DNA of 64,000 bases from a virus. Below, one piece after another: positions 3,445 through 26,761 of the stretch (position 1 is its first letter; the number at the start of each line of letters is the position of its first letter). The position numbers were made by a program, and so were the translations under genes. The stretch lies in the UHGV virus genome UHGV-0117634, one strand, 5' to 3'. A model generated the notes under the pieces. That model was not told where the DNA came from, did not search any database, and saw nothing but the letters and a program-made list of their open reading frames with translations.

Positions 3445-3909
3445 TTAACCTAGAACTTTAGCAAGCACATTTGCAGCCATTGTTGAGGCTTTAGCAGCAG
3501 CGTTAACCCCAGATTTAATGGTGCTGTCCTTGATAGCTGATACCGTTGCAGCATCAGTAAACAGATAAGTGGTAGTCTTTTCACCACTTGTGAAGGAAAG
3601 CATAAGAGCAGTTTCCAGATTGAAGGAACGGTATGGTGCTCCCTGTTTTACAATCCCTGCTGCACCAAGTTCTGAAGCCATACCCATATCATAGATGGTC
3701 ATCAGATTTTCTTTGTGAGCAGTTGTAGAACCAACACCTTTAACGTGTTTAGAAACATTCAGCAGAGCACGATACTCACGAATCTCTCCGTCAGCTTTGA
3801 CGTTTACTGCTCGGAAGATTTTACCTTCAAAGTTGTCTTTGATGATACGACGAACAACTTCAGATTTGTTTCCGGTTGCATCGATAGCTACTGTTATAAT
3901 ATTTTGCAT
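3445..3909 (-). CDS. hypothetical protein (154 aa)
   Basis: ORF-track ORF with GAGAGAG-containing leader and its own terminator. Confidence 0.5.
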   Translation of the reverse strand: MQNIITVAIDATGNKSEVVRRIIKDNFEGKIFRAVNVKADGEIREYRALLNVSKHVKGVGSTTAHKENLMTIYDMGMASELGAAGIVKQGAPYRSFNLETALMLSFTSGEKTTTYLFTDAATVSAIKDSTIKSGVNAAAKASTMAANVLAKVLG

Positions 3910-3920
3910 GGTTTTCTCTC

Positions 3921-4616
3921 TCAGTTTTTAACTAACATTGTTTTAATGTGTGGAAGGATTCTTTCGACCTTTGCCACGTTCTTTACTGTATCTTCTATAA
4001 AGCATACTACATCATAGTAAGGTAGAATGCAAGACTGAAGCATACGAACTTTCAAACTTTCTGCACTAATCTCATTGTCACCAAATCCACGCATAAACAG
4101 TAAGAAATCACTGTCTACATTTTCATTCAGGAAGAGATGAGTGACCACTCTCTGTGATTCACCACGAGCAGTTAAGAATCCTATATCAGCATTTTGTGAT
4201 ATCCCACACAGGATGTTAAAAACATAAGTTGGTTTAGCTCTGCGAGAGTCCACCAAGTTAGTGTACTGTGAGTAAGTACCATCATCTAACAGAGTTGCAT
4301 TAAGTTTCTTATCAAAACTTGTAAGAACACCATCAATATCTGCTAAGACCATTTTACGTTTTTCTTCCAAGTTCTTTGCAACCAAGATAAGACTATTACG
4401 ACCCACATATACAGTCTTACCTGTTAGCAAATCTTGACAAGGAATCTGTGTCTTTGTTGAATGAAAGTCTTCAAAGCTACATGCAACACATCTTGCTGTA
4501 TCTGCAAAGTCAGCTTTAGCAACGTCTGACCAGCTTGCATAACTGATATCTAAATCAAGTGGTTTGATATCATAAGCATGACACAGAACCGTATCAAATT
4601 GTTTTGATTCGCTCAT
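3921..4616 (-). CDS. HAD-like phosphatase-domain protein (putative nucleotidase), N-terminal region unknown
   Basis: LADIDGVLT matches HAD motif I (DxDG[TV]); later GFGDNE resembles motif IV. Confidence 0.35.
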   Translation of the reverse strand: MSESKQFDTVLCHAYDIKPLDLDISYASWSDVAKADFADTARCVACSFEDFHSTKTQIPCQDLLTGKTVYVGRNSLILVAKNLEEKRKMVLADIDGVLTSFDKKLNATLLDDGTYSQYTNLVDSRRAKPTYVFNILCGISQNADIGFLTARGESQRVVTHLFLNENVDSDFLLFMRGFGDNEISAESLKVRMLQSCILPYYDVVCFIEDTVKNVAKVERILPHIKTMLVKN

Positions 4617-5142
4617 ATTTTACCTTTTTAATGTTTGTTGCAAACTCACATTGAGCAAGCAATTTCATGTTATTGTACACATCTTGAGAATATTGTCTAG
4701 CCTTTGGAATCTTATATTTGTAACCAGCATTATAAGAAGCTAGGACACGCTTCATAGAGTACTTTCCATCTGGGTTACCGTGAACCTTTGTCCAGAATAG
4801 CAACTCTTTATGAGCCTCTTTTGCTGAGTAATGGAAGTCACTTACCAACTTCTTCTTAGCAACCTTTGGAGATATTTTGTTACGCTTTACAACAGTCTTC
4901 AAGTGATTCTGGAAAACACCATAATCATGAGTCCTTTTATTTTCTAACATGACACCTAATTGTGACTCTTGTAAGGCTATAGCTGCTAAAGGGATTCCCC
5001 AACCTTTTCCCATCTGTCCTTCGCCATAGTTATATGCTTTTAACATATTTACTTTCTGACTGATTGTAAGTTCTGGACAGTCAGATGCTGTAGCTAAATG
5101 TGCTGTAAAGAATAAGCACAAACCTAAAACAAATTTCTTCAT
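4594..5142 (-). CDS. signal-peptide lytic transglycosylase (candidate secreted/SAR endolysin)
   Basis: Start moved to MKKFVLGLCLFF (AGGAG RBS); signal peptide; Slt-like motifs ALQESQLG, GVFQ, SYNAGY. Confidence 0.55.
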   Translation of the reverse strand: MKKFVLGLCLFFTAHLATASDCPELTISQKVNMLKAYNYGEGQMGKGWGIPLAAIALQESQLGVMLENKRTHDYGVFQNHLKTVVKRNKISPKVAKKKLVSDFHYSAKEAHKELLFWTKVHGNPDGKYSMKRVLASYNAGYKYKIPKARQYSQDVYNNMKLLAQCEFATNIKKVKYERIKTI

Positions 5143-5206
5143 TTGCACTCCTATTTTGTTAAACATGCAGACAATTATACATCATCCTGCACATTTTTCA
5201 AATAAA

Positions 5207-5229
5207 AAAGGCTGCCGAAGCAGCCCTTT
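5207..5229 (-). terminator. rho-independent terminator after rIIB
   Basis: Plus AAAAAAGGCTGCCGAAGCAGCCCTTT; stem GGCTGC/GCAGCC with CGAA loop, flanking A/T runs. Confidence 0.55.
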
Positions 5230-5242
5230 AGGAATTTACTTA

Positions 5243-6364
5243 TTATACTTCACGTTTACGCTGAGAAATCAGTTCACCAGCAGTTCCTACAACTACATGA
5301 AGTGCTTCTGAACCATCCCACTCTTTGATGACTTCACGGCGACTATTCACAATCGCTGCAACTTCATAACGTGAAGCTCGCATTTTCATATCGTTGTAGT
5401 CAGTTGGTACTGAAACAACATCACGAGGATGAACACGAACTTTCAGGATAGTGTCGCCAGAGAAGCTAGTTACATAGTCCCAAGCCCCAACATGCAGACC
5501 CTGAGAGCATGTTACATGACGGTTATTATCAACCATCCAACGTGGCATCTCAACAATGTTACCCAAATCGTTTGGAACTTTGCAGGTACGAGAGTCAAAC
5601 AGTTTACCACTACGAGTTGTGACTTTCTTCCAACCGATGATATAACCTTCTTCATCGATTTCAACATCAAGGTGTGACACAAAGCCCCAAAGTTGTTCTA
5701 CAGAGTCTTTTGATGGGTTTTCCATCAGTTTTTCGAAGAATGCAATCAGACGGGTAAAGCCTTCATCACCTTTCTTCATCATGTCCAGAATACGGTCTAC
5801 CAGAGTTGAACGCATTTGAACAGCACCGTAGTACAGGTTATCACCTTTAATGGTCACAGCACCCTGAGTAAAGTTCTCAATGGATTTGCGAATATTCATC
5901 AGTTCAAAGGCTTTCTTGTACTCACCTGATACAACAGCCATAACAATTTCAGTGTAGTTAGGGTGAGTTGATTCAACAATCTCTGACTCTGCACCGAAAG
6001 TCATGATAACCGAGTCACCAGTAATCATGTATTCAATCTGACTATTATTCTGCATTGCTTCGTGCAGAGCATTTACAGGTTCTGCTTTGACTGCTTCTTT
6101 AACAGCTTTTGCAACAGGTTTCTGAGTAGCTACCTTTTTAGTTGCTTTAGCTTTCTTAGCACCCTTTGCAATATCCTTCAGAGTCCTCGCAGGTTTTGCT
6201 TTGGTTTTCCCTGTCAGTAAAGTTGCTTCATGACGCTCTACAGCACGACCTACAGAACGAGTTGAAGTATTGTACTTCAGAGCAATTGCAGTTTTGGTAA
6301 GTTTACCTTCTTTAACCAGTGCGTAGATTTCTGCGTCGATTTGTGCTTTAGTCTTAGTAGTCAT
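5243..6364 (-). CDS. rIIB: rIIB-like protein
   Basis: C-terminal region (RSTLVDRILD..., CSQGLHVGAW, VRVHPRDVVSVPTDYNDMKMR) matches T4 RIIB as I recall it; lies immediately downstream of rIIA as in T4. Confidence 0.85.
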   Translation of the reverse strand: MTTKTKAQIDAEIYALVKEGKLTKTAIALKYNTSTRSVGRAVERHEATLLTGKTKAKPARTLKDIAKGAKKAKATKKVATQKPVAKAVKEAVKAEPVNALHEAMQNNSQIEYMITGDSVIMTFGAESEIVESTHPNYTEIVMAVVSGEYKKAFELMNIRKSIENFTQGAVTIKGDNLYYGAVQMRSTLVDRILDMMKKGDEGFTRLIAFFEKLMENPSKDSVEQLWGFVSHLDVEIDEEGYIIGWKKVTTRSGKLFDSRTCKVPNDLGNIVEMPRWMVDNNRHVTCSQGLHVGAWDYVTSFSGDTILKVRVHPRDVVSVPTDYNDMKMRASRYEVAAIVNSRREVIKEWDGSEALHVVVGTAGELISQRKREV

Positions 6365-6407
6365 TTTAATATCTCTCTTTGTTGTTTAAAGTTACTTAGT
6401 GGTTCGT

Positions 6408-6436
6408 ATTCTAAGGGGCTTTTCAGCCCCTGTCAA
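6408..6436 (-). promoter_or_regulatory. sigma70-like promoter for rIIB (TTGACA-N17-TAGAAT) with a GGGGCTGAAAAGCCCC hairpin in the spacer
   Basis: Minus strand TTGACA, 17-nt spacer made almost entirely of a perfect 6-bp-stem hairpin, then TAGAAT ~40 nt upstream of the rIIB ATG. Confidence 0.45.
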
Positions 6437-6443
6437 ACTATTT

Positions 6444-8816
6444 TTATTCCCAACAGTTGGTATCTTCTGGCAGACCTCTAACATCAAACCCTAAGAATCT
6501 ACCAACTTCAACAGGTGACACTTTATTCCAATCCAGATTAGAAAGCAAGAAGTTTTCTTTACGGCGTTTTTCAAAGTAATCTTTGAACTTGCTTTCAAGA
6601 CGCTTCTTAGCATTGTCCAGAATCTTTCTTGGCTTACAAGAGCTTCTCATATTCCTGCGAATGGTGTCAAGAGTACTGTAGATTTCTTTGTAAGCAATTG
6701 GTGCAGCAGTGTATGCCAAGCGACCAAACATTGCTTCTACAGCGTCTTCGTTCCCTTCTAACAGGATTGTTGAGTCAAAGTCTTTGTTATATACATGACC
6801 CCTTGACTTCTTCTTACCAGCAAAGTTGAAGTTACGAGCAACAACATTACAATCTGTGATATCATGCTTATCAGTCATGTACTGATATGTCAAGTAACGA
6901 TGATACTCAATCCAGTGAGTGTTATCAATAAAATCTTTCATCACCTGTGCATTGACTTCTGTCCAATCTTCAGGAATCTTCTTCCAGTTTGCTTTACGGA
7001 AGACATAAACTGTTTGTCCAGTTAATTCTGTCATCAACGTTGCAGCACGTTCTGGTGAGCATGAGAAGATACCACCAAGAACTTCATCACTCTGTGCTTT
7101 GATATACAGTTGTGGTTCTTCAATCTCATCAAAGTTTTCCTTAACTTCCGTATAACGGATTATGCCGGAGTTTGGGCATATAAATGCTTTGTACAGCTTC
7201 ACCACTCCACGTACAATGGTACGTTTCTCATAGTGGTGCTCTTTAGATGACATTGTATGCACACTTAACAGAGTCTTGTCAAGCATATGCAGAGCTACAA
7301 ATTCATCAAATTGCTGCTGACTGCTGAACAAGAAAGCAATACCATTGTAGCGACGGAAGTTGGAATCTTCCTGTTCACGGTCACGGCAAGCTCCACGGAT
7401 AATCTGATTTTTACCAGTCGTCTTTTCAGACCCGTTCTTGTTTCGACGGTCATTGATAAGGAACAAATAGTTGCTCAACTTATCTTTACTCATTGCACCA
7501 AAGATACTAAACATGGCAGCATCTTGTGAATATGTTGCTGAAGTTGCTCGAATACGATTCTCCAGACTGCTGTACTTGTAATATGCTACAGGTTCATACA
7601 GATTACCAATATTAGGAACTGGATTACCGTCTTTGTCAAGCCTTAAGTTACCTGCATCATCTTTTAAGAATGATGGAGAACCATCTGCTTCAGTTAACTG
7701 ACCACGACGAATACCCAACAGCTTTTGTTCAAGCTTTTTCAAGTTCTGACCTTGCCACTCCAGAGAATCTTGGACGTGATTAAAGATTTCACGAGCCTCT
7801 TTCCTCATGGTATCATAAGCCTGAGCAGCATCAATCAGCGTTGGCTTATTAGCAATCTCTTTAACCACATCTTCAACGATTGTCTTAGTGATTTTCTTCA
7901 CGGCTTCAACAATCTTTGTCTTAGTGGTCTCATTCATCTGTAATGCTTCACGAGATGCAGCAATAGCCACTGAACCAATTGGCATGTAGATATTAACAAG
8001 GTCTACAGCACTACGGAAGAACTGAGGCAGAATACTTGTAAACTCTGAACCAAGCAACTCACCCATTTCAACAGGATAAGCAATATTACCCATGATTACG
8101 TTGAAATGGACACTATTACTATTTGAGCGCCAGTTCTCTTTGTACTTCATTGCATCATAGACACCATCTTCACGAGAAATGGAAGTCATTGCTTCAAGAA
8201 TGTCATAGTACTCAACATTACACTCTGGCTTAACTTTAAAGTACGAGTATACATTGCTCGCTTCTTCATGAAACTTGTTAATACGGTTATCAGATACCGC
8301 TACTCGAACAGCTAAACCATTTGGCTCTGTAGTTGGGTTAGTAGTCAACTTAGTGACTTGAGGGATACCATTCTCAAGATATACAGAGTACTTGTTAACA
8401 ACACCATCAACATAGCTTGATACAGTAAATGATTGAGCAATCGCAAACGGTGACTTTGAACCGATACCCATAGCACCGATGTAGTCATTTGAATCGTTCT
8501 TTGTAGATTCTCCATAGGTCATATAAAGCTTCATGACTTTTTCATGAGTCAGACCTGTACCAAAATCACGAACTTCAAAGAAAGGCTCAAAACGAGTTGG
8601 CAAGTGAACCAAGAAAGGCTTATCAACATTACCAGAATCAATGTGAGCATCTACTGCGTTACAAGATAACTCACGAATAACAGCACGTTCTTTGTATGTG
8701 TAAACACCTGAGCTTAGAAGACTGAACATTTCAGGTGTCATCTTAATCTGAGCCTGAGAGGTTTCCAGTGTACTTGAGCTTTTAATTACCGTTGCGTGGT
8801 CATTTACCATGCGCAT
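6444..8816 (-). CDS. rIIA: rIIA-like protein (GHKL/Bergerat-fold ATPase N-terminus)
   Basis: N-terminal YKERAVIRELSCNAVDAH...RDFGTGL...DYIGAMGIGSKSPF aligns with T4 RIIA ATPase-fold motifs from memory; 790 aa. Confidence 0.9.
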   Translation of the reverse strand: MRMVNDHATVIKSSSTLETSQAQIKMTPEMFSLLSSGVYTYKERAVIRELSCNAVDAHIDSGNVDKPFLVHLPTRFEPFFEVRDFGTGLTHEKVMKLYMTYGESTKNDSNDYIGAMGIGSKSPFAIAQSFTVSSYVDGVVNKYSVYLENGIPQVTKLTTNPTTEPNGLAVRVAVSDNRINKFHEEASNVYSYFKVKPECNVEYYDILEAMTSISREDGVYDAMKYKENWRSNSNSVHFNVIMGNIAYPVEMGELLGSEFTSILPQFFRSAVDLVNIYMPIGSVAIAASREALQMNETTKTKIVEAVKKITKTIVEDVVKEIANKPTLIDAAQAYDTMRKEAREIFNHVQDSLEWQGQNLKKLEQKLLGIRRGQLTEADGSPSFLKDDAGNLRLDKDGNPVPNIGNLYEPVAYYKYSSLENRIRATSATYSQDAAMFSIFGAMSKDKLSNYLFLINDRRNKNGSEKTTGKNQIIRGACRDREQEDSNFRRYNGIAFLFSSQQQFDEFVALHMLDKTLLSVHTMSSKEHHYEKRTIVRGVVKLYKAFICPNSGIIRYTEVKENFDEIEEPQLYIKAQSDEVLGGIFSCSPERAATLMTELTGQTVYVFRKANWKKIPEDWTEVNAQVMKDFIDNTHWIEYHRYLTYQYMTDKHDITDCNVVARNFNFAGKKKSRGHVYNKDFDSTILLEGNEDAVEAMFGRLAYTAAPIAYKEIYSTLDTIRRNMRSSCKPRKILDNAKKRLESKFKDYFEKRRKENFLLSNLDWNKVSPVEVGRFLGFDVRGLPEDTNCWE

Positions 8817-8849
8817 AAGAATATCTCCTTAGTTGTCGATGTGGCAAAC

Positions 8850-8877
8850 TATATAATTTTATAGATGCCACTGTCAA
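8850..8877 (-). promoter_or_regulatory. sigma70-like promoter upstream of rIIA (TTGACA-N16-TATATA)
   Basis: Minus strand TTGACAgtggcatctataaaatTATATA about 30 nt upstream of the rIIA ATG. Confidence 0.4.
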
Positions 8878-8878
8878 G

Positions 8879-9058
8879 TTACTTTTTAAATTTCTTTCCA
8901 GTTCCGTTGCAGTAAGGGCAACAATGTCCCATACCAGCTATACCAGAACCTTCACACTCATCACAAGGTTCTGTCTCTGAGAAGTACTTGCATAGTAGCA
9001 CTGCAATGGCAACAATACAACCTAATGATAGAACAATCTCTAACCAATAACTTTGCAT
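8879..9058 (-). CDS. small membrane-anchored protein with two CxxCxGxG (DnaJ-type zinc-finger) motifs (~59 aa, not in ORF track)
   Basis: Translation MQSYWLEIVLSLGCIVAIAVLLCKYFSETEPCDECEGSGIAGMGHCCPYCNGTGKKFKK: one TMD then CDECEGSG and CPYCNGTG. Confidence 0.4.
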   Translation of the reverse strand: MQSYWLEIVLSLGCIVAIAVLLCKYFSETEPCDECEGSGIAGMGHCCPYCNGTGKKFKK

Positions 9059-9375
9059 ACATTTTCTCCTACAGTTCTAAATAGAACAAAACTTCTGTCA
9101 TGAACAATACTCGAAGATACTGCAAAACTATTCTCAAGTATATTTTTATTTGGATTGTAGAATCCTTCTTGGAACAAATCAAGTGCCTCTTGATGATTTT
9201 GTGGCAGACCTTTGATGTAAACCTTCAAAGTGACCGTTGTATAAATCTCAGAAGCTAACTCTGACTGTGCTGCTTGAAACAGTTCGTTGATAAACTTGTG
9301 ACCATCTTCAGGACGCTGAATGTTTTCCCAACGTTCTTCAATGATTACATTGACATTCATCTGTTTAATTTTCAT
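9040..9375 (-). CDS. hypothetical protein (111 aa)
   Basis: ORF-track ORF downstream of the NAMPT-family gene. Confidence 0.4.
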   Translation of the reverse strand: MKIKQMNVNVIIEERWENIQRPEDGHKFINELFQAAQSELASEIYTTVTLKVYIKGLPQNHQEALDLFQEGFYNPNKNILENSFAVSSSIVHDRSFVLFRTVGENVCKVIG

Positions 9376-9599
9376 AGTCTGTTAATTCCTTTGCAAGTTT
9401 TACGAAACTCTCTGCGAAGCTTTCTAATCTGACGTTTAGTAGGTTTTGTAGGGAATTTGTAATCATCCACAAAAACCTGCATATCATCTCTGTAGTCTTC
9501 TGCAAACCATAACTGCCAAGATGCTACACAATATCCACCAAAGAATCCAGTACTATCTGTATAAAATAAATCAGTGTTAAATCTCATAACATTCTCCAC
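9372..9599 (-). CDS. hypothetical protein (75 aa)
   Basis: ORF-track ORF; GGAG RBS; overlaps next gene start. Confidence 0.4.
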   Translation of the reverse strand: MENVMRFNTDLFYTDSTGFFGGYCVASWQLWFAEDYRDDMQVFVDDYKFPTKPTKRQIRKLRREFRKTCKGINRL

Positions 9600-9604
9600 A
9601 AATT

Positions 9605-9627
9605 AAAAAGGCTCCCGTAGGAGCCTC
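9605..9627 (-). terminator. rho-independent terminator after NAMPT-family gene
   Basis: Plus AAAAAGGCTCCCGTAGGAGCC; stem GGCTCC/GGAGCC, tetraloop, T-run on minus strand. Confidence 0.6.
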
Positions 9628-9640
9628 TTATCATACTATT

Positions 9641-11458
9641 TTACAGTTGCTTGTCAATAACTTTTCGTACATCACGAAGGTTAACGTAACCATATGGTTG
9701 TGAGTCACAGAAGACAAGCTTCAAAGCACACTGAGGGTTGTCAATGACACCTTCAAACTCTGCAAATCCTAAGCCATCTACAGCTTCCAGCTTATCACCA
9801 TCCCACATAGGAATGACACCACCAAAAGCAGATTTCTTAAGACCACTATCTGTTTTAGGGTCTTTAGCCAGCATGATTTCTTTACCATCCATCTGTGCAA
9901 GAGTTGCTTTAACAGCAAATGCAAAGGTATCGCGAGTCAAGTACTGATAAGTGTATGAACCTACACCAAACACTACGTTAGAACTTGCAAAACCCTTATC
10001 AGCAAGACGTGACAGGATATCATTAGCTCTTTCCAGAGTGATAGAATCACCGTAGATTAATCCAATGTGCTCATCCAGTACTTTGTACCCTTTGGAGTTA
10101 ACAGTGCCACCAAAGATGTTATACAGCGTGTGGATAGCCCCATCAATCTCTGCTGTCAGCATACGCTTCACAGTAAACTGTCCAGTTTTCTGAGCGGTAA
10201 TCAGGTTGATTGTATCAGCAGATTCAAAATCTTCCTTATCAACAACCATCTCATAACCTTCAGAGATTAGCCAAGCAGAGAACCCAAAGCCAATATCAGA
10301 CATTTCACAATTCAAGATTGTGTCATGCAGATGTGTATTGTTCGGTGCAAGCTCTTTCATGTGCTTGTAGAACATTGACTTAGCAGTTTCCCACTCAATG
10401 GCTTTGTAACCAGTAACAATGTGAACAGGGTCTCCAGAGTCTGGACGGATTACCAACTTACCATCACGATTCAGAATCACATTACGTAGCTCTGGTAAAA
10501 TCTGTGTAACAGTTCTCCAGAAGTTGTAAGTATCTGATACAACACTTGCAATACCAGTTGGGTAGACTTCTGTCAGAAGACGTTGGAAAGTTTCTACCTC
10601 ACCACGCCAACGCATTGCATCTAACAAGTTGTCAGACTGTAGCAGATGCCAATCACTTACTTCTTTTGCACAACTATTCCATGAGATGTTTGCACACATC
10701 ACAGAGTGTTCAGTTGCTGGTACAGAGTTCCCGATATCACTTACAGTCATAAACTGACCATATGCACGTTTAGCTGTGTATACAGCAGGGAAGCTGTCAG
10801 TACCTTTAAAACTTGTCAGGTGACCTACTGCGTTAAACGCATCATCTGTGAATCCAGACATACCACGCATTGCAAAGTCATGACACTGCCAAGGAAGATG
10901 GAAGTCGTTATCACAGGTCAAATCTGACCACTTCTTACAAATACGTTTGTAATGTAGTGCAATAGTTGCAATTGTACAAGCTTTCCAGATTTCAGCAGAG
11001 AAAGCATCTTCGAGATAACCAGCTACCCAATGGAAGCCCTCTACAGTGTTTTTGAATATAATCATCGGGACACGCATAGGGACAATTGTACCTTCCTCTA
11101 CAGAGTAGACTTCAACAGGCAGATAACCTAAGTCATGAAGTTCTTCCCAATGTTGGCGACCAATAGCATCTGCACCAAGAACACCATTCATGATTTCCAA
11201 GATTTCGTCAATGGCTTCTTTCTTATCGCGTTCAAAGAACGTTGCATTCCAGTGGTCTACCAGATAGTCTTTTACAAAACGCTGAATACCAAATGCTACA
11301 ACACCATCAATTTCTAATGGAGAGTTAAACCATTTGTCTCCACGAGGTGTTAAGTTCAGCATAAGATACTGAGTAGCATCTGGATACTGGTAGATATGAC
11401 CAGCTTTGTAAGCATCTGCGTTAAGTCCTGCTGGTACTGCATAGATTGATTTAGTCAT
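9641..11458 (-). CDS. nadV: nicotinamide phosphoribosyltransferase-family protein (NAMPT/NadV-like; candidate Namat of an NAD+ reconstitution pathway)
   Basis: Clear NAMPT motifs: DAYKAGHIYQYP, FAMRGMSGF...SFKGTDS, SVPATEHS, VVSDTYNFW, IRPDSGDP, IYGDS, FGVGSY...LTRD. Confidence 0.9.
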   Translation of the reverse strand: MTKSIYAVPAGLNADAYKAGHIYQYPDATQYLMLNLTPRGDKWFNSPLEIDGVVAFGIQRFVKDYLVDHWNATFFERDKKEAIDEILEIMNGVLGADAIGRQHWEELHDLGYLPVEVYSVEEGTIVPMRVPMIIFKNTVEGFHWVAGYLEDAFSAEIWKACTIATIALHYKRICKKWSDLTCDNDFHLPWQCHDFAMRGMSGFTDDAFNAVGHLTSFKGTDSFPAVYTAKRAYGQFMTVSDIGNSVPATEHSVMCANISWNSCAKEVSDWHLLQSDNLLDAMRWRGEVETFQRLLTEVYPTGIASVVSDTYNFWRTVTQILPELRNVILNRDGKLVIRPDSGDPVHIVTGYKAIEWETAKSMFYKHMKELAPNNTHLHDTILNCEMSDIGFGFSAWLISEGYEMVVDKEDFESADTINLITAQKTGQFTVKRMLTAEIDGAIHTLYNIFGGTVNSKGYKVLDEHIGLIYGDSITLERANDILSRLADKGFASSNVVFGVGSYTYQYLTRDTFAFAVKATLAQMDGKEIMLAKDPKTDSGLKKSAFGGVIPMWDGDKLEAVDGLGFAEFEGVIDNPQCALKLVFCDSQPYGYVNLRDVRKVIDKQL

Positions 11459-11478
11459 CTTTTTATCTCTCTCAAAGT

Positions 11479-11494
11479 GGGGCTTTTCAGCCCC
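11479..11494 (-). promoter_or_regulatory. second copy of GGGGCTTTTCAGCCCC hairpin (intergenic, between PRPP-synthetase-family and NAMPT-family genes)
   Basis: Identical 16-mer to the one in the rIIB promoter spacer; here no good -35/-10 flank it. Confidence 0.4.
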
Positions 11495-11502
11495 TAAAGT
11501 TT

Positions 11503-12402
11503 TTATTCAATATTTACTACAGTCACTTGTGAGAAGTGTGAAAGTCCACGCCATTTAGCACTTCCTAATGAATCTGTAGTGTAGATATGGTCAATACCGT
11601 TGTCAAGAAGATTTTCAACACCTTTAGAGAAAATCCCATGAGTGACATATAGTTCTACATGTTCTGCACCAGCTTCACGAAGATACTTTGCAGCCTCAAT
11701 GAAGGTACGACCACCGTCACAGATATCATCCAGAATCATGACAGTCTTACCTGTTAAGTCTACATCATCAAGGATTCGCATACCAGTTATTTCACCAGTT
11801 TTTAGGTTGCGTACCTTAGCCATTGTGATATATGGCTTTTCAACATCCTTAGCAGCTTCTTCTGTCTTCTTAGCTGCACCTGCATCTGGAGCCACTAAGT
11901 AATCAATTCGTGGGTCACTTGCAAAGTGTGATGCAACGGCTTTTTGTGGAACATTATAGAAGCACTTGAACAAATTTTCTGCTACGTTGCTGTGAACATC
12001 CAGAGCACATACAGAATCAAATTCCATAGCATTTACCAGATTGGCAAACACTTTCAATGCTGCTGCATCTCCTTTAAACATGTGTCGGTCATATCTTGCA
12101 TTTGGTAAGAAACCAAATAACACTGACTTCATTGTTGTTTGTTGAGGTATAAGGTTGTCAATTGCTTCTTTAGCCAAAGCTAATGCAAATAAGGTGTCTT
12201 TGTCATAACCTTGTACCGTGAAGATTACGTTTTCAATTTTTCCAGCAGCATGTTTAGCAAAATCTACTAAGTCTTCTGAAAAGTTACCACCAATTTCCCC
12301 TGAAGGGAACTGAATAATGTTGAAGGTCTCTTGGTGTGAACCTTTTGAATTTGAATTAAGCAGAACTTGAATAGTAGTTTCCATAGTATTTCTCTCAGTC
12401 AA
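11503..12402 (-). CDS. ribose-phosphate pyrophosphokinase (PRPP synthetase)-family protein (candidate Adps)
   Basis: PRTase-type binding loop VMILDDICDGGRTF and overall Prs-like layout; immediately upstream of the NAMPT-family gene. Confidence 0.8.
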   Translation of the reverse strand: MTERNTMETTIQVLLNSNSKGSHQETFNIIQFPSGEIGGNFSEDLVDFAKHAAGKIENVIFTVQGYDKDTLFALALAKEAIDNLIPQQTTMKSVLFGFLPNARYDRHMFKGDAAALKVFANLVNAMEFDSVCALDVHSNVAENLFKCFYNVPQKAVASHFASDPRIDYLVAPDAGAAKKTEEAAKDVEKPYITMAKVRNLKTGEITGMRILDDVDLTGKTVMILDDICDGGRTFIEAAKYLREAGAEHVELYVTHGIFSKGVENLLDNGIDHIYTTDSLGSAKWRGLSHFSQVTVVNIE

Positions 12403-12421
12403 AAGTTACGTTTGTAAATTA

Positions 12422-12871
12422 TTATTCCCAAATAATTTTCTTTCTTTTTAATTTAATGATGTTCTTTTTACAATACTCAACTGCCTCATCCATTGTATCA
12501 AACATCATCTCACCAATAAAGTACTTAACATTTGGGTTTTGCTCTTGTATTATTTGGATTTCTGTAGTTTTTACTTGGTCTTTTACACCAGTAACCAGTC
12601 TTGCTAGTCGTGGTTCATTTTCCATAAATGGTTTGCTTAACTGGTTGATATAAAGAACTCCACCATTTTTGCTACCATGCTTGACAGTCACGAGAACCCC
12701 AACTTTACGCAACGCTGATAAGTAATACCTTGAATTAGCTATCGGCATTTTCTTAAGATAATCACAATTACTTCTTAGAGCTTTCACCGCTTCATTGGAA
12801 TCAAATTCCTTATCAGTCCCGAACTTTTCGTGTAGTATCTCAACAAGCGTTACATAAAATGAGCTAATCAT
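12422..12871 (-). CDS. hypothetical protein, tandem paralog B (149 aa)
   Basis: Same length as and about 45% identical to 12898..13347 (shared EIL..KFGT..FDSNEA...YL.ALR..GVL.TV and C-terminal YFI...MF.T..EAVE.CKK.IIK.KR.KIIWE). Confidence 0.6.
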   Translation of the reverse strand: MISSFYVTLVEILHEKFGTDKEFDSNEAVKALRSNCDYLKKMPIANSRYYLSALRKVGVLVTVKHGSKNGGVLYINQLSKPFMENEPRLARLVTGVKDQVKTTEIQIIQEQNPNVKYFIGEMMFDTMDEAVEYCKKNIIKLKRKKIIWE

Positions 12872-18963: not shown

Positions 18964-20036
18964 TAAGGAACCTCTAAAAATCCTGAATTTAAATCATCAA
19001 CAACAGTATTCAAAAGATACGCACCATTTTGTTGTTCTTGGTTAGCGTTTTGCTCTTTATCAATTTCCATCTTCTTAATCATATATTTCAAAGGTGGTTC
19101 TTTAGGAGCTACGAAGTCTCTTGGAATACCAAACATATCATACAATGGAGCAGCATTGTAGTAAACCCATTCATGAAGAAGTTTTGTATTCAAGCCTACA
19201 ACAGCACGTCCTTCAGAGAAGATATAATAAGACCATTTCTCTTCACTTTCAACTACTTCATCCAGAATTACTTTAATCTCTGGGAGTACTTGACGGAAAG
19301 CTTCTTGCCACTCTTCATCTTTCAAAGTTTCTTTTAATGCTTCGATATCAATCTTTGTGTGAATGATTTCGTCAAGCATAATTTTCTGTACTGCTTGTGC
19401 AATCCCTTGGAATTTATCTTGTGCATCAAGTGCAAAGGTACATGCAAAGGATGCCATGAAGGAAATACCCTCAAGTGCTGTTACTGCAAAGAGACCTTTC
19501 AAGATTACTTTGTGGAAGTGTAAAGGGTCTTTCTCCATTAACTCTTGACGAACATAGTTTAAACGATAGTTAATACCTTCGTCAAGTAATTCTGCCAGTG
19601 CTCTGTTTACAGTCTTCAATCTGTCCTGAACAGCAGTGTTCTGGTTAATCTCATCAAGGATTGTTTCAGGGTTCTTGATACACTGACGAACAATCTCTGA
19701 ATAAGTTAGTGCATGAAGGTTCTCAATTTCTGATTGCTTCATGATAGCAGTTGCATAGATATCATCAGAGATGAATGGTGCAAATGCAAAAGCTAAACTC
19801 TTAGCAACCTGTGTATCTGCTTCCCATTGCCATTTCAGAATCTCAAGCATTACACCAGACATTGACTGAGGGACACTCTCAAAGTCTAAGCGTGATTGCT
19901 CAAATGGAAATTCCTCTTCAGACCAGTCTTGAGCTTTCTGCTGCTTATACAGTTCAAAGATTTTTGGATAGTGTTTATTAAGTGAATCAAAAGTCTTACG
20001 TTCTTCACCTAAGAAGATTGGATGTGAATTAATCAT
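18963..20036 (-). CDS. nrdB: ribonucleotide reductase class I small subunit
   Basis: Ferritin-like di-iron ligand pattern (e.g. LDEIIH), 357 aa, downstream of nrdA. Confidence 0.8.
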   Translation of the reverse strand: MINSHPIFLGEERKTFDSLNKHYPKIFELYKQQKAQDWSEEEFPFEQSRLDFESVPQSMSGVMLEILKWQWEADTQVAKSLAFAFAPFISDDIYATAIMKQSEIENLHALTYSEIVRQCIKNPETILDEINQNTAVQDRLKTVNRALAELLDEGINYRLNYVRQELMEKDPLHFHKVILKGLFAVTALEGISFMASFACTFALDAQDKFQGIAQAVQKIMLDEIIHTKIDIEALKETLKDEEWQEAFRQVLPEIKVILDEVVESEEKWSYYIFSEGRAVVGLNTKLLHEWVYYNAAPLYDMFGIPRDFVAPKEPPLKYMIKKMEIDKEQNANQEQQNGAYLLNTVVDDLNSGFLEVP

Positions 20037-20308
20037 TCTGGTAATTTTCCTGTTCTGAACATATCTCTCGCAGCTTGTCTTGTAAGGACTAGCCAGTTTT
20101 CCATATTAAATAACTCAGGTGCTCTAACATATTCTTTGCCGCCATTAAAGCAGTCAATATATCTCACACATTTCTTCCAAGAATCATCATCCTGCTTTAC
20201 CATTACCTCTGTACTGGCAACATAGTAAAGTGTATTTCTTGGCTTATACATCAGATAAACAGATTTACCTTCTGCTTTATTTCTTGCGGATTCTATTAAG
20301 TCTATCAT
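20033..20308 (-). CDS. hypothetical protein inserted between nrdA and nrdB (~91 aa)
   Basis: ORF-track ORF trimmed to internal Met with GGAGAG RBS and TAACTTT leader; longer version would overlap nrdA. Confidence 0.4.
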   Translation of the reverse strand: MIDLIESARNKAEGKSVYLMYKPRNTLYYVASTEVMVKQDDDSWKKCVRYIDCFNGGKEYVRAPELFNMENWLVLTRQAARDMFRTGKLPE

Positions 20309-20363
20309 AGACTCTCCAAAGTTAATTTTAGAGGGTCTTTTACGACCCTCATAGTTATTGAAA

Positions 20364-22598
20364 CTAAACACCACAACCTTCGCAGTAAGCATCTTGAAGT
20401 GCTGATTTACCAACACCAATACGACTGTTTAGGTAGTACATGGTTTTCATACCTACAGAGTTTGCATAAATCATGTACTTCAAAGCTTGCTCTAATGATA
20501 CCTTCTTAGACTTCGAGTAGTCAACATAGAAATCTGAAGAGATAGCTTGACCAGTGAATTTTTGAACAATTGCATAGCAATCAATCATATCAAATGTGTC
20601 AATATCCCAAGCAATTTCATAGACATACTTCAACTCTTCGTAGTCTGGTACGATAAACAGTACGTTACCAGTGGCAGACTTTTTAGTTAAAATAAAGTCA
20701 CGGATTGGGTACAAGCCATTTGTCGTATTAGTTGCTAGTGAAGAACTCTCGTTAGGCATGTAAGCTTCTAATACAGAGTTTCGGATTCCACCATTTTCTT
20801 TGATACGTTGTGCTAAGTCATCCCAATCATATCTTAGTTTTGCATCATGTTTTTCATCAATCTTCTTGTTAGCTGTCTTAGTTGGAACCCAACCATCAGG
20901 GTACTTAGTAAACTTCATGTACTCAGGCACACCACGCTCTTTAGACAGTCTCAGTGAAGCCTCATGCAGATAGAATGAGTGCATCTCTGCAAGTTCATGT
21001 AGCTTCGTTTTACCAGCCCTTGAAGAGTAGTTCACGTAGTTCTTTGCAAGGTAATGAGCCACATTTGTAAGGCCAATCCCAACAGAGCGACGTTTCTGTA
21101 CATGGTTACGCATCGACGGATACGGGTAGTCCATGAGGTCAATAACGGAGTCAACCATTGCAAGAGCATAATAAGCAACGTCAGCGTATTCATCTTCTGA
21201 AATTCTCCCTGCAACCAAACTAGCTAGGAAGCAAAGAGCTACTTCACCATCTTCTTTAGCAGCATTGTAGCTGTAAAGGTCTGTCTCTTTCTCAAATCCA
21301 TAAACTGGCAATATAATTTCCATGCACAGGTTAGACATTTTCAAAGGTTCTTTGAACGGCGTATGTGTGTTTGCGTTGTTCGTAAAGAACGGATAAACAC
21401 GACCAGTTGCATAACGTTGCTGGATAAACAACTTAGCAATCTCACGAGCTTTTACTCGCTTATGTTTAACACCAGTGTGAACCGCATGTCCAACAGCCAT
21501 TGCAAACTCATCTGCACTTGCTGTGTAGAACATATCATACAATTTTGGAGCGTCCTTGTAAGAGAATAGTAGCCAATCTGTATCGTACTGCACACATTGC
21601 CAGAAGTAATCGTTTGTTCCAAATGAGTAATCCATCTCATTAATACGCTTTGAAGTAACCGTTGTAGGGTGCTTCAGACGAAGTAAATCTTCAATCTGAG
21701 GGTCAAGAGCAGTGTAGAAGTTGTTCGCTGAACCACCACGACTCTTCTGCTTATTAGCCTCTACAGCAGCACGTACCAGCTTATAATAAGGGAGTTTTCC
21801 CATATGCTCAATAGTGTTTTGTCGGATACCGTCACCAATTGTTCTGGTCTCCATCAGCATACCAATACCTGCTTGCTTAGTGGTCATGTCATAAGCTACT
21901 TTTGTAGCAATGCCAAGAGATTCAGCAGTATCATTTGCTTTAATTAGGCAGCATGAAGCGTAGCCAGATTTTGTAGCTCTCAGACCATTCAGATACGGTG
22001 TAGGAGCATTAATCTTCAGGTCAGATAGATATGTGTAGAGCTTAATAACATCATCTAAACGCCGCTGTTTAGGCTGTCTTTCAAAGGCTTTCATAGCCAT
22101 ACCCATGAACATAAACTGTGGAGACTCAAACAGCTTACCACTTTTAATGTCACGGATTCCATACTTATCACGGAACTGCTTCAGCACTGCATACCCATAA
22201 GAGATATCTTTCGAATGTACGATGTGACCTTGTAAGTAGTCAATCTCTTCAGGTGTGTAATCCATGTGTTCCCAAAGTCCCATCTGCTCCATCTTCATCA
22301 CAAATGGAAGTAACTGAGGAACCTTTGTAAATCCACCAAAAGCTTCTTTGTAGATAATGCCAAGAAGTAGTCTCCCAGCCATATCAGAGTACTCTTGAGT
22401 TTGTTTATCAATACAAACGTCAATCATAGCTTGGTGCATTTCTTTTGTTGTACAACCTTCATAGACACGCTTCATAGCTTCCATTACAACTTCTGACCAG
22501 ATAATTCCTCTCTTGTCAGCCCATGAAGCCCATTTATTTAAACGTTCTGGTTCGAATGGTACGATTGTACCGTCTGATTTGCGAATAGTAGTAATCAT
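20364..22598 (-). CDS. nrdA: ribonucleotide reductase class I large subunit
   Basis: N-terminal ATP-cone (MITTIRKSDGTIVPFEPERL), 744 aa, C-terminal Cys pair (CEGCGV). Confidence 0.85.
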   Translation of the reverse strand: MITTIRKSDGTIVPFEPERLNKWASWADKRGIIWSEVVMEAMKRVYEGCTTKEMHQAMIDVCIDKQTQEYSDMAGRLLLGIIYKEAFGGFTKVPQLLPFVMKMEQMGLWEHMDYTPEEIDYLQGHIVHSKDISYGYAVLKQFRDKYGIRDIKSGKLFESPQFMFMGMAMKAFERQPKQRRLDDVIKLYTYLSDLKINAPTPYLNGLRATKSGYASCCLIKANDTAESLGIATKVAYDMTTKQAGIGMLMETRTIGDGIRQNTIEHMGKLPYYKLVRAAVEANKQKSRGGSANNFYTALDPQIEDLLRLKHPTTVTSKRINEMDYSFGTNDYFWQCVQYDTDWLLFSYKDAPKLYDMFYTASADEFAMAVGHAVHTGVKHKRVKAREIAKLFIQQRYATGRVYPFFTNNANTHTPFKEPLKMSNLCMEIILPVYGFEKETDLYSYNAAKEDGEVALCFLASLVAGRISEDEYADVAYYALAMVDSVIDLMDYPYPSMRNHVQKRRSVGIGLTNVAHYLAKNYVNYSSRAGKTKLHELAEMHSFYLHEASLRLSKERGVPEYMKFTKYPDGWVPTKTANKKIDEKHDAKLRYDWDDLAQRIKENGGIRNSVLEAYMPNESSSLATNTTNGLYPIRDFILTKKSATGNVLFIVPDYEELKYVYEIAWDIDTFDMIDCYAIVQKFTGQAISSDFYVDYSKSKKVSLEQALKYMIYANSVGMKTMYYLNSRIGVGKSALQDAYCEGCGV

Positions 22599-23304: not shown

Positions 23305-24040
23305 TATAACCGACTCCTTTCAACCACTGCTTGAGGTTGATTGCATCATAATTCAATTTCGGATATGAGGTTACATGGAACTTCTCACCATCATAGTACA
23401 CAATATCCGCAAGCCATAATCCATTCTCACGGCAGAAATCTTTATCTGCTTTTGAAGAGATTGGTTCAACTTTAGAAAAGTTTTTAATGCCAAGACTACC
23501 AAGACTTCCAATCAGTCCTTGGCAGATAACGCATGTGTCAGATGTTACCACAAATAATTCTTTTGCGTCAACTTCTGCAACAAAACTTTCAAGTTGAACT
23601 TTTGGAAGATTAGACTGTTTCATAACCTTACCATCAGACTTGCGAATAATTGCAAACCACTCTTTGCCTTCGATGATTGATTGGCGCAGGTAGCATTCAT
23701 CACCAGTACGTTTCTCAATATCAAACATTCGCTGTACAGCTTCTTGATAGTCATCTGTGTATTTGAGGTTGTTGTTTTCACAAACAGCCTTGATAGCACC
23801 ATCATGGTCATGCTGTGTTAGGAAAATTAAACCGTCAAGTACATACTGCAAATCAGCTTGAGCATCAAGAGTTTCAATGGGGTCTTTGGCTTCTACTGCT
23901 GCGACTAACTCTCTAGCTTCTTCAAGCATGCACAGAGATTGACTTTTCAGTGATTCCCAATACTCTGTGCTGTATGGCTCTTTTGGGTTATTGCCACAAC
24001 GTAGATTCCAATTTCTTACGGATTCTCTGGAATTAAACAT
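23285..24040 (-). CDS. hypothetical protein; N-terminal region weakly MazG-like (all-alpha NTP pyrophosphohydrolase)
   Basis: EEARELV...ETLDAQADLQYVLDG fits the ExxE...ExxD spacing of MazG/HisE-type pyrophosphatases; tentative. Confidence 0.3.
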   Translation of the reverse strand: MFNSRESVRNWNLRCGNNPKEPYSTEYWESLKSQSLCMLEEARELVAAVEAKDPIETLDAQADLQYVLDGLIFLTQHDHDGAIKAVCENNNLKYTDDYQEAVQRMFDIEKRTGDECYLRQSIIEGKEWFAIIRKSDGKVMKQSNLPKVQLESFVAEVDAKELFVVTSDTCVICQGLIGSLGSLGIKNFSKVEPISSKADKDFCRENGLWLADIVYYDGEKFHVTSYPKLNYDAINLKQWLKGVGYNGFTEH

Positions 24041-24270
24041 TAAGCCTCCTTATCTTCAAACAACTTTTGTTGAGACTCAATATATTCCATTCGTTCTTTG
24101 AGTTCAACACGTTTGCTTAACAGATGTTGAATTTGTGATTCCAGAGCATCCATCTCAGCTTCTGTAGCTGACTTAGCTTTACTGATAGTTTCCTTCAGTG
24201 CTGCTACGCCACTCTGGATTTTAGAAACATGGTCATTTTTGATTTTATTAAACATTTTAAACTCTCTCAT
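24040..24270 (-). CDS. small coiled-coil protein (76 aa)
   Basis: Heptad-like charged sequence. Confidence 0.4.
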   Translation of the reverse strand: MREFKMFNKIKNDHVSKIQSGVAALKETISKAKSATEAEMDALESQIQHLLSKRVELKERMEYIESQQKLFEDKEA

Positions 24271-24757: not shown

Positions 24758-25814
24758 TCATAACTGGCTCCCAATTGTATTTTTTAAACGTAAAATCATC
24801 TTTAGGATTTCGTTCTTGATAAGCAATCCAGAAGTGCTGCTCCATTAGTTCTAGTGGAGTTCTTGTCACAATCTGACCATCCCACGATTCATAAGTATAT
24901 GACTCTTTCTTAGCATAAAGTTCATAGATTGCGTCTAAGCACTCTTTGTAGGTAGTTTTACCTTCCAGTGCATTCATCACTGCAACCTTACCAGCACCTT
25001 TTAAACCGAAGTAGTTATCTGCATTATCACCTGCTACAGCTTGATAGCAGAGGAATTTAAAACCTACTCCAACTGTCTTCTTAGCTTTCGGTTTAGATTT
25101 GATAGGGCAATCCCAAATCTCACCAACGTTATTATCTGCAATGAAAATTAATGGAGCTTTCTCATAAGTCATATCAATACAGTAAGTTCCTTCAGCTTGA
25201 CGAAGGTCTTTATCAATACTCATCAGAGCAGCTTTTTTACCCATCTTCTCAGCTTTTGCAATAACGATAGAGTCTGCTTCGAAGCCCCCCTTTAGGAGCT
25301 TAAACTCTGGTCGTGACAGAAGATACTCACGACAAGCAACTAGGTGTGTAGGTGTTACAGCTTCTTTTCTGTTACCTTGGTATTGGTGTTCAAGACCTTT
25401 GATATCCTTGTGTTTGTGAACACCTTTCTCAGTAAGGTAACCCATCCATTTGCGTTCTTTACCAACGACTTTCAACCACTCCTGAAGAACTTGCTGTGTA
25501 GCCATAATTGCTTCAGCTTCACTCTTAGCCTCCTTCCAAGTCTGTCTTTCCCATTCATCTTCATCAAAGTCAAGTCCTAACTCTTCAGTTAAAACTCTTT
25601 GGTCAGACAGCCATTGTGCTGCCAGTTTTGCACTATCAAAAGCGTCGGATTCTTCAGCAGTGATTTTATTCACATACTTGTACTTTGCTTTTTCAACTAC
25701 ACAAGCACCTTTGTAAGCAATGCTATCAGAGTCAATAAAGACGTGTGTAACGCTCTCTGGGAGCTTTGTTAAGGTGTATTGTTCCATTGTACTCTCCATA
25801 CGAAAAAGCCCCAT
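24747..25814 (-). CDS. 5'-3' exonuclease, T7 gp6-like
   Basis: Segments ALMSIDKDL, GDNADNYFGLKGAG, EIWDC align with T7 gene 6 exonuclease as recalled. Confidence 0.6.
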   Translation of the reverse strand: MGLFRMESTMEQYTLTKLPESVTHVFIDSDSIAYKGACVVEKAKYKYVNKITAEESDAFDSAKLAAQWLSDQRVLTEELGLDFDEDEWERQTWKEAKSEAEAIMATQQVLQEWLKVVGKERKWMGYLTEKGVHKHKDIKGLEHQYQGNRKEAVTPTHLVACREYLLSRPEFKLLKGGFEADSIVIAKAEKMGKKAALMSIDKDLRQAEGTYCIDMTYEKAPLIFIADNNVGEIWDCPIKSKPKAKKTVGVGFKFLCYQAVAGDNADNYFGLKGAGKVAVMNALEGKTTYKECLDAIYELYAKKESYTYESWDGQIVTRTPLELMEQHFWIAYQERNPKDDFTFKKYNWEPVMNED

Positions 25815-25831
25815 ACGTCTGTACAGGGCTT
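25804..25831 (-). terminator. terminator-like hairpin after SSB-like gene
   Basis: Plus AAAAGCCCCATACGTCTGTACAGGGCTTT; stem with longer loop, T-run on minus strand. Confidence 0.4.
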
Positions 25832-25849
25832 TGTAGTAGTTACTGACTA

Positions 25850-26710
25850 TTACTCGTCGTCAGTTTCGAAATCATCTTCGTCATCATCATCTGGGTTTGG
25901 CAGGTCGTCGTCATCGTCATCACCACCTTTACCTTCATCACCAGAATCTTTTGCATCTTCTTCAGTGATTTCGCCGTTGTCTTCAACACCTGCAAGACCA
26001 AGCATTGCCAGTTCATCTTCATCCAGTTCAGTCTCAGTAGCACCACCAGTACCACCAGTGTAAGGAACCAGAGTATCAATGATAAATTGTTCCTGAATTG
26101 GCTTGGTCAGAACGTTACCTTCAAATGTGTAGAAGTGAGTCGCCAGAATCACACTACCAAATGAGCCGTTACCAACTGCAATATCTGGATGAATTACATC
26201 GTAAGTCTTATCATCATCGTGCTTATCAGATTTTGCTGCCTTGATTTTCTTCATAGGCTGCTTAACTGCAACACGCTTACCGTTGATTTCTTCAACCAGC
26301 ATTACAGGGAAACTCTGTTTTGCTGACCACACAGCACCGTCTTTATATGCTGCTGAACGGCTAACCTTCAGGATGTGATAGGTGTCAGCTTCAAACGGAG
26401 GCTCACAACCAAACTTCTCTTCGAAGTCATCTGCATCAACAGCCTCTGTAGTAACTTTATCCCAACCTTCAGGACTCTTTTTAGACTTGGTGAACTCTTT
26501 AAAGAGCTTGTTACCATCTTTTGCCAGAATTGAAACGCTGTAGTTACAATCTTTGCCCGGAAAATGCTTATCCACAGATTTACCCTTTTGAGGACGTGGA
26601 ATAGTGTTCAGGTAATAGAACCAAACATCTTTCAGCAGGTAACGAAGAGTCTCACGTTCTTGACCATTGTACTTCTCTACCGGAGCTTTCATTTTAACAC
26701 CTTTAGACAT
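25850..26710 (-). CDS. putative ssDNA-binding protein with acidic C-terminal tail (T7 gp2.5-like architecture)
   Basis: ~40-residue Asp/Glu-rich tail (...DDDDDDLPNPDDDDEDDFETDDE) and position within the T7-like replication module; body not aligned. Confidence 0.45.
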   Translation of the reverse strand: MSKGVKMKAPVEKYNGQERETLRYLLKDVWFYYLNTIPRPQKGKSVDKHFPGKDCNYSVSILAKDGNKLFKEFTKSKKSPEGWDKVTTEAVDADDFEEKFGCEPPFEADTYHILKVSRSAAYKDGAVWSAKQSFPVMLVEEINGKRVAVKQPMKKIKAAKSDKHDDDKTYDVIHPDIAVGNGSFGSVILATHFYTFEGNVLTKPIQEQFIIDTLVPYTGGTGGATETELDEDELAMLGLAGVEDNGEITEEDAKDSGDEGKGGDDDDDDLPNPDDDDEDDFETDDE

Positions 26711-26761
26711 TTTAATACCTCTTTCTCAAATTAACTTTCAACTCAATTATCAAGGAGTACA

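Follow-up and report, generated by a model that had tools for sequence, protein, structure and literature searches.

What is the function of the short sequence that recurs just upstream of the start codons of many leftward genes in a Felix O1-like phage genome? The question is raised by a 64,000-nucleotide stretch of the virus genome UHGV-0117634 (hereafter the window), in which the initial annotation described a three-part leader, AACTTT followed by GAGAGA and the ATG, as more than a Shine-Dalgarno sequence and as a possible promoter element or translational enhancer. Our analysis supports a simpler answer. The run of GA dinucleotides at the center of this leader is probably a clade-biased variant of the Shine-Dalgarno sequence, located in the A/U-rich leaders of approximately 8–10 leftward early and middle genes; by the same account AACTTT is no single element, and the longest sequence shared between leaders (21 nt) arose by insertion of a gene cassette.

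The window belongs to a Mooglevirus (Ounavirinae), a Felix O1-like myovirus. A megablast search with positions 5200–15200 returned 294 related phage records, the closest being Citrobacter phage vB_CbrM_HP1 (96.5% identity). Three gene blocks can be read from the layout of open reading frames (ORFs) and the GC skew: a minus-strand block from position 1 to ~31.4 kb with the rII, NAD salvage, nrd, and replication genes, a plus-strand block at 31.6–40.8 kb, and a second minus-strand block at 40.8–64 kb with the structural genes. Leaders were compared with those of 29 related loci around rIIB from IMG/VR, and with two complete genomes, those of Felix O1 and of Erwinia phage phiEa21-4.

GAGAGA is distinguished by its position relative to start codons. 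Taken over the whole window the hexamer is not enriched (33 occurrences vs. 39.9 expected), whereas no other hexamer is as enriched at positions −16 to −4 of the start codons, where it has 12 occurrences at nine genes against 0.23 expected (p = 4e-17). The same hexamer ranks first in the same interval in Felix O1, where the count was made independently (14 occurrences at 10 genes, 0.28 expected). Its use is also restricted by gene block: GAGAGA lies in the 20 nt upstream of the start in 9 of the 51 leftward early/middle genes, in contrast to 0 of the 44 other genes (Fisher p = 0.003). The annotated claim of a recurrent element tied to translation initiation at many leftward genes is therefore borne out, as far as the GA run is concerned.

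A pure GA run that includes no GG is found before eight genes, with starts at 3909, 6364, 11458, 12384, 13347, 14779, 24255, and 30964. Within the window the run is (GA)3 or (GA)4, often with a T directly 5' of it (consensus (T/A)GAGAGA(GA)), and the spacer to the ATG is 5–7 nt in all eight. All are on the minus strand. The longer form, GAGAGAGA, is found at 3915–3922, 5 nt before the ATG of gene 3445–3909; at 11466–11473, 7 nt before that of the NAMPT-family gene nadV (9641–11458); and at 30971–30978, 6 nt before that of gene 30170–30964, a site beyond the range that the initial annotation had covered. GAGAGA is found at 6372–6377, 7 nt before the ATG of rIIB (5243–6364); at 12391–12396, 6 nt before that of the Prs-family gene (11503–12384); at 13355–13360, 7 nt before that of the first of two tandem paralogs (paralog A, 12898–13347); and at 14787–14792, 7 nt before that of a gene for an 85-aa protein (14522–14779). 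A 71-aa gene (24040–24255) has GAGAGAG at 24263–24268, 6–7 nt before its ATG at 24255. A further string, TATTAAAATG, has four exact copies in the window, each at a minus-strand gene start.

What lies upstream of these runs varies, from stop-codon overlap to a hairpin, a promoter or, in Felix O1, an inserted HNH gene. The TGA stop codon of the preceding gene overlaps the run in the 11-nt gaps before starts 3909 (cTGAGAGAGA) and 13347, the preceding stop lies just 5' of the run at start 14779, and in the nadV leader a hairpin comes first and then the run. Variants of the leader had also been proposed at several other genes. Those before start 3909 and nadV do contain a GA run, but the ORF inserted between nrdA and nrdB (true start 20308, leader TTAACTTTGGAGAGTCTATG) and the SSB-like gene (start 26710, leader GAGAAAGAGGTATTAAAATG) have the ordinary Shine-Dalgarno cores GGAG and AGAGGT, respectively.

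The GA run is also the conserved part of these leaders. It is present in 32 of 32 recovered copies of rIIB and in 32 of 32 of orf5 (gene 3445–3909), counting Felix O1 and the relatives' loci together with the window, and in the Felixounavirus/Mooglevirus group it is also retained wherever a copy of nadV, prs, or the 85-aa gene was recovered. Upstream of rIIB, GAGAGA is invariant while the rest of the 5' untranslated region (UTR) diverges by both substitutions and indels. Run length ranges from (GA)3 to (GA)8 across relatives, as expected of a slippage-prone repeat; the leader of the 85-aa gene covers this whole range, and the run before nadV is 6–12 nt long. These lengths are taken from leaders compared orthologue by orthologue, a better source than one pattern count by gene family, which undercounted some families. 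The spacer to the ATG is far more constant than the run length: 28 of 29 rIIB copies have 7 nt, and the other genes have 4–9 nt. In Felix O1, the counterparts of genes 24040–24255 (orf108) and 30170–30964 (orf98) have the leaders TTGAGAGAGAATAAAATG and ACTGAGAGAGAAATAATATG, and the run before nadV is still present in the 17-nt gap that remains after insertion of an HNH gene. We also observed that close relatives differ in the length of the run upstream of the 85-aa gene and nadV, which amounts to a dinucleotide microsatellite inside a ribosome-binding site (RBS).

Comparison with more distant phages suggests what the run stands in for. The phiEa21-4 orthologues have an ordinary Shine-Dalgarno sequence (AAGGAA, AGAGG, or GGAGAA) in the same place and no GA run, and a GA-run site is used nowhere in the whole phiEa21-4 genome. 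The two forms also alternate between closer phages, as in the leader of a macro-domain gene, which reads GGGAGGA in the window and GGGAGAGA in Felix O1. For Citrobacter phage Mordin, the GAG within the run is already labeled in GenBank as a ribosome_binding_site for these genes, including the one before prs. Given the spacing, the canonical replacement in phiEa21-4, and the Mordin annotation, the GA run most likely fills the Shine-Dalgarno role itself, and the proposal that the leader is more than a Shine-Dalgarno sequence does not hold for it.

GA runs are occasionally used elsewhere, and what sets this clade apart is how often they are used. Among the 86 genes in the first 50 kb of T4, two have TGAGAGA in the leader, motB and dam. 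In T7 no GAGAGA run occurs at any of the 57 annotated starts; the GAGAG before genes 1.1 and 2 reads on as GAGAGG and so contains the canonical GAGG core. When sites are counted without reference to annotation, the ratio of GA-run to canonical sites is 0.075 in the window and 0.064 in Felix O1, compared to 0.036 in T4, 0.010 in T7, 0.026 in a 50-kb sample of E. coli, and 0 in phiEa21-4. The GAG-core Shine-Dalgarno sequences of T4 (the TGAGAGA of motB and dam, and the common TGAGGA type) share several properties with the sites described here: they are purine-rich, lie 5–8 nt before the ATG, often have a T at the 5' side, and can pair with the CCUCC of the 16S rRNA tail. Unlike them, the sites in this group are true GA dinucleotide runs without GG and vary in length from (GA)3 to (GA)8, and they are used by 18% of the genes of one block and by none in the late block.

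Duplex predictions against the 3' tail of 16S rRNA are consistent with this role. With AGGAG (−5.7 kcal/mol) and AAGGA (−4.4 kcal/mol) as reference values, GAGAGAGA is predicted to reach a comparable −5.0 kcal/mol, with GAG[A]GAG pairing to CUCCUU and one A bulged. The GA leaders as a class range from −2.9 to −5.6 kcal/mol, vs. roughly −6 kcal/mol (read off a table) for a typical gene of the window, so that they rank among the weaker pairings of this phage. Their initiation regions (−30 to +18) are also less folded than the rest, with a mean predicted minimum free energy of −1.6 vs. −4.4 kcal/mol (Mann-Whitney p = 4e-4), and richer in A/T (74% vs. 67%). A plausible mechanism is that the 30S subunit docks either through the GAG core and the CUC of the 16S tail or through the longer, bulged pairing with CUCCUU. 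Because the run and its A/U-rich flanks contain almost no C, the initiation region would stay single-stranded, and this could offset the modest pairing and favor standby-type binding that depends on ribosomal protein S1.

Several observations weigh against a plain Shine-Dalgarno role. The bare GAGAGA of the prs and paralog A leaders is predicted to pair weakly (−2.9 kcal/mol, the GAG core with CUC only). Such a role also leaves unexplained why only one transcription block uses the class and why, across relatives, the run is invariant when it might have drifted to GGAG or GAGG. Sampling was of fairly close relatives (rIIB proteins 76–99% identical), so that the conservation counts are phylogenetically non-independent. 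Finally, the literature we searched holds no expression, toeprinting, or transcript-end data for this phage group, and for this reason we infer, from sequence, both the pairing with the ribosome and the effect on expression. That literature also gave no account of a GA-run RBS in phages, and none of phage-specific promoters or a transcriptome in Felix O1-like phages, although part of the search was too broad to be informative. On balance, the GA run is real but ordinary, a member of a known Shine-Dalgarno class and not a separate kind of signal, and it overturns nothing.

The other half of the proposed motif, AACTTT, has neither the enrichment nor the conservation of the GA run. It occurs 104 times in the window, vs. 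90 expected, and is not among the enriched hexamers at −45 to −15, a zone dominated by terminator U-tracts and hairpin fragments; the 5-mer AACTT has 15 occurrences there vs. 6.1 expected (p = 1.6e-3, uncorrected for the 1024 words compared). Its copies also have several origins. In the rIIB leader AACTTT (6388–6393, minus strand) is part of a non-coding 5' UTR, and relatives drift to GTAATTTTA, TTAACTAAC, or AAACTTTTA while GAGAGA stays fixed. Before the 85-aa gene (14797–14802, minus strand) it belongs to ATT AAA CTT TAA, the K-L-stop end of gene 14795–15076. In the 13347 leader GTA ACT TTT GAC TGA encodes the C-terminus VTFD and stop of gene 13359–13652, with a synonymous GAT in Felix O1. 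In the nadV leader the hairpin is flanked on its 3' side by the ACTTT that adjoins the GA run, and relatives have ATTTT there. We rejected AACTTT as a discrete motif on these grounds, and with it the reading of AACTTT, GAGAGA, and ATG as one three-part element; the enrichment over background that the initial annotation had called for is found for GAGAGA and not for AACTTT.

Some of these leaders nonetheless resemble that of T7 gene 10. In rIIB, GTAACTTTA matches the T7 epsilon sequence TTAACTTTA at eight of nine positions, as does TAAACTTTA before the 85-aa gene, and so does TTAACTTTG (20317–20325, minus strand), which stands directly before the ordinary GGAGAG Shine-Dalgarno sequence of the ORF inserted between nrdA and nrdB and is conserved in Felix O1 orf113; other leaders match at seven of nine. 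The rIIB and 85-aa leaders share with the gene 10 leader (g10-L) the order AACTTTAA, a purine tract ending in GAGAT, an A/T spacer, and the ATG. The gene 10 leader as read from NC_001604 ends in ttttgtttaactttaagaaggagatatacatATG and the 14779 leader in ctgtattaaactttaaaagagagatattaaaATG; AACTTT lies 17 nt from the ATG in each, and 11 of these 17 bases are identical. They differ in that the Shine-Dalgarno sequence is GAGAGA here and AAGGAG in T7. Within T7, genes 7.3, 9, 10, and 17 (positions 19535, 21950, 22967, and 34624) all have ACTTTAAGGAG before the ATG; the context of the gene 10 "enhancer" thus partly recurs in T7 itself, and it overlaps an extended Shine-Dalgarno sequence, TAAGGAG.

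Two pairs of genes had been annotated as sharing identical leaders, and both identities are exact and well in excess of what shuffled sequence gives. The first is a 19-mer, AAAGAGAGATATTAAAATG, with one copy at 6362–6380 in the translation initiation region of rIIB and one at 14777–14795 before the 85-aa gene (both minus strand); allowing up to three mismatches gives four matches vs. 0.09 expected. We dropped this pair as evidence of gene conversion, since sister variants two substitutions away from the copy at the 85-aa gene occur in relatives and make coincidence in a low-complexity consensus a sufficient explanation. The two copies are best described as low-complexity, near-consensus leaders that agree in this lineage, an identity for which either coincidence or a short gene conversion would suffice.

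The second identity, the 21-mer GTAACTTTTGACTGAGAGAAA, has two copies vs. 0 expected, and its history can be read from relatives. The downstream copy (12389–12409, minus strand) is non-coding and the upstream copy (13353–13373, minus strand) holds the VTFD C-terminus and stop of gene 13359–13652. Between them is a 964-bp insert with two tandem paralogs of 149 aa each (phrog_29478; 12422–13347, minus strand). In HP1 and about 20 other relatives the 21-mer occurs once, directly before prs, and the paralogs are absent; among the loci fetched only the window has two copies. Of the 294 related records only 16 have the cassette, in one or two copies and accompanied by further inserted genes. Mordin has the same insertion with a longer duplication of 34 bp, and in phage finno the insertion joint lies inside the GA run. 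From this distribution the 21-mer pair is evidently a direct repeat made when the cassette was inserted between the resident RBS and the ATG of prs. The site upstream of prs is an insertion hot spot.

A deletion in the same region used a similar sequence. In one IMG/VR genome (L018, IMGVR_UViG_3300045988_004931, positions 7006–7060) prs, the HNH gene, and nadV are missing by comparison with Felix O1 (82284–82353 and 85519–85588), and the deletion joint falls exactly within a 16-nt identity, GAGAAAACTATGAAAA, common to the initiation regions of prs and orf130. Similar leaders therefore act as crossover points. Taken together with the insertion at prs, this indicates that initiation regions with short identities provide sites of recombination in Ounavirinae, which extends a principle known from T4-like phages. 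The identity of leaders beyond the Shine-Dalgarno position thus has a historical cause, cassette duplication combined with a low-complexity consensus, and not a functional one.

The rIIB gene has in addition a putative promoter of the sigma-70 type (6408–6436, minus strand), with TTGACA at 6436–6431, TAGAAT at 6413–6408, and a hairpin, GGGGCTGAAAAGCCCC, in the spacer at 6430–6415. Across all 31 relatives the boxes and the stem are conserved and the loop differs. A second, identical copy of this 16-nt hairpin lies between prs and nadV (11479–11494, minus strand). The rIIB unit, a sigma-70 promoter with a GGGG...CCCC stem-loop between −35 and −10 followed by a Shine-Dalgarno sequence and ATG, resembles the PeSL (promoter-early stem-loop) cassettes of T4-like phages (Arbiol et al., 2010; PMC2839356), and short leader identities flank inserted or deleted genes here too, at the prs junction. 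The full architecture is present at rIIB and the hairpin alone before nadV; the other six GA leaders have neither promoter nor hairpin, and most GA leaders abut the preceding gene. The repeats that flank the cassette also differ from a full PeSL, since they consist of a coding end and RBS (21–34 bp), and the phages belong to a different subfamily (Ounavirinae). To our knowledge, a PeSL-type architecture has not previously been reported for Felix O1-like phages.

Could the GA motif instead be a signal specific to the phage? As a middle or late promoter element read by a modified host RNA polymerase it would account for the restriction to one transcription block, and the temporal control of transcription in Felix O1 is unexplained, with no phage-specific promoter known (PMC3185647). 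The genome paper reports none and does not mention an RBS or Shine-Dalgarno sequence (PMC3185647). The position of the run makes this very improbable, and we rejected the promoter element that the initial annotation had suggested. The run is fixed relative to the ATG (5–7 nt) and not to upstream landmarks; it overlaps the preceding stop codon before 3909 and 13347, follows one closely at 14779, and persists in the 17-nt gap of Felix O1 nadV, and gaps of 11–17 nt leave no room for a 5' UTR and RBS. At rIIB it lies approximately 25–35 nt downstream of the conserved sigma-70 promoter and therefore inside the transcript. The only promoter-like matches that span the motif score 9 of 12, and such matches are common (73 vs. 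55 in shuffled sequence). A signal acting on translation is somewhat easier to accommodate, though still improbable. The run might be the operator of a dedicated regulator comparable to RegA of T4, or a Shine-Dalgarno sequence without GGAG, immune to a RegB-like nuclease specific for GGAG. In such a case about 10 early and middle genes (including rIIB, nadV, prs, orf5, orf98, orf108, and the 85-aa basic protein) might form a translational regulon, with GGAG-free and unstructured initiation regions read differently by a phage factor or a phage-modified ribosome, and with the slippage-prone (GA)n tuning expression between strains. Confinement to one block (9 of 51 vs. 0 of 44), invariance of the run while neighboring bases diverge, and a usage approximately 2–7 times that of T4, T7, and the E. 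coli sample would all fit. As with the RegA operators of T4, a common sequence covers the initiation regions of a set of early and middle genes, and rIIB is a classical RegA target in T4. The likeness ends there: the RegA operator is A/U-rich and not a GA run, and a tblastn search with T4 RegA found no homologue in the window or in Felix O1 (best E = 4.2). Rfam gave no match at gathering score in positions 1–32000. The same genes are served by ordinary Shine-Dalgarno sequences in phiEa21-4, a run length free to vary from (GA)3 to (GA)8 would be unusual for a specific protein site, and T4 and E. coli also have occasional GA runs.

The two other explanations address what surrounds the run, and both seem unlikely to us, if less so than a dedicated signal. 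According to one, AACTTT(AA) is an enhancer of the T7 gene 10 type (epsilon, UUAACUUUA) that boosts initiation in at least the rIIB, 85-aa, and nrdA-nrdB insert leaders. For T7 gene 10 itself, the literature documents an A/U-rich enhancer of 9 nt that precedes the Shine-Dalgarno sequence, but no longer supports its base pairing with 16S rRNA (PMC8748333). The matches at eight of nine positions and the A/U-rich, unstructured character of the GA leaders fit such an enhancer; against it stand the lack of enrichment at −45 to −15, the drift of the site in rIIB orthologues, its coding content in the 14779 and 13347 leaders, and its absence from the Felix O1 equivalents of the genes starting at 18728 and 53749. 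By our own rough estimate about one of the three matches in leaders would be expected by chance (~29 matches on the coding strand, ~3.6% of positions in leader zones). Since the enrichment and conservation tests failed, we keep the likeness to gene 10 as a resemblance that may serve as a lead. The enhancer proposed in the initial annotation could still apply to the A/U-rich flanks, which are unstructured and in two leaders similar to that of gene 10. The remaining explanation treats the recurrence of leaders mainly as a by-product of recombination, in which initiation regions provide microhomology for insertion, deletion, and gene conversion and are spread or homogenized in the process, as PeSLs are in T4-like phages. 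The 21-bp and 34-bp repeats that flank the cassette, the finno joint, the L018 deletion, and the place of the rIIB leader at the 3' end of a PeSL-like unit of promoter, hairpin, and Shine-Dalgarno sequence all point this way. Cassette turnover is seen at the prs junction only, however, and most of the class (rIIB, orf5, orf98, orf108, and the 85-aa gene) belongs to the core gene set, keeps its place from one relative to the next, and shows nothing that would suggest mobility. Recombination thus accounts for the long identities but not for a GA run at Shine-Dalgarno spacing, for which the Shine-Dalgarno variant remains our preferred explanation.

Recognition of GA runs has practical consequences for annotation. 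The first-listed starts of two minus-strand ORFs, 20033–20392 and 24040–24270, are probably wrong, as 20308 and 24255 fit the leaders, the annotation of relatives, and the lengths of orthologues. In Felix O1-like phages, a GA run that contains no GG should be treated as an RBS both by start-calling programs and by annotators, the two listed starts (20392 and 24270) being probably wrong for this reason. Felix O1-like phages are widely used in biocontrol of Salmonella and E. coli and in cell-free phage synthesis. For the refactoring of such genomes it is useful to know that about one tenth of the genes use weakly pairing, unstructured initiation regions.

The products of the GA-class genes and the inserted paralogs belong to PHROG families of unknown function, except that gene 30170–30964 matches a "minor tail protein" family, and a Pfam search of the same set gave no match at the cut-off. 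The 85-aa protein (14522–14779, minus strand; phrog_4425) has a strongly basic and highly conserved C-terminal tail, GKGGKKQAHR..AAIKRAAKKARNRKR, in common with Felix O1 orf123. Its upstream neighbor, ORF 14795–15076 (minus strand), ends in ...EELDQFCIKL and is homologous to Felix O1 orf122; HP1 has no annotated gene there (gap HP1_99/HP1_98).

A different early-gene leader, CCTAAACTGGAGAATCTAAGATG, has one copy in the window (442–465, minus strand, before gene 235–441) and at least seven in Felix O1 (orf15–orf23). The phiEa21-4 version, AACAACCCTTATAAAGGAATCAAAACATG, has at least 10 copies (gp15–gp31). Most copies of these repetitive leaders follow a hairpin or a common upstream block, and they have the appearance of regulatory cassettes repeated across the early region, most of which lies outside the window.

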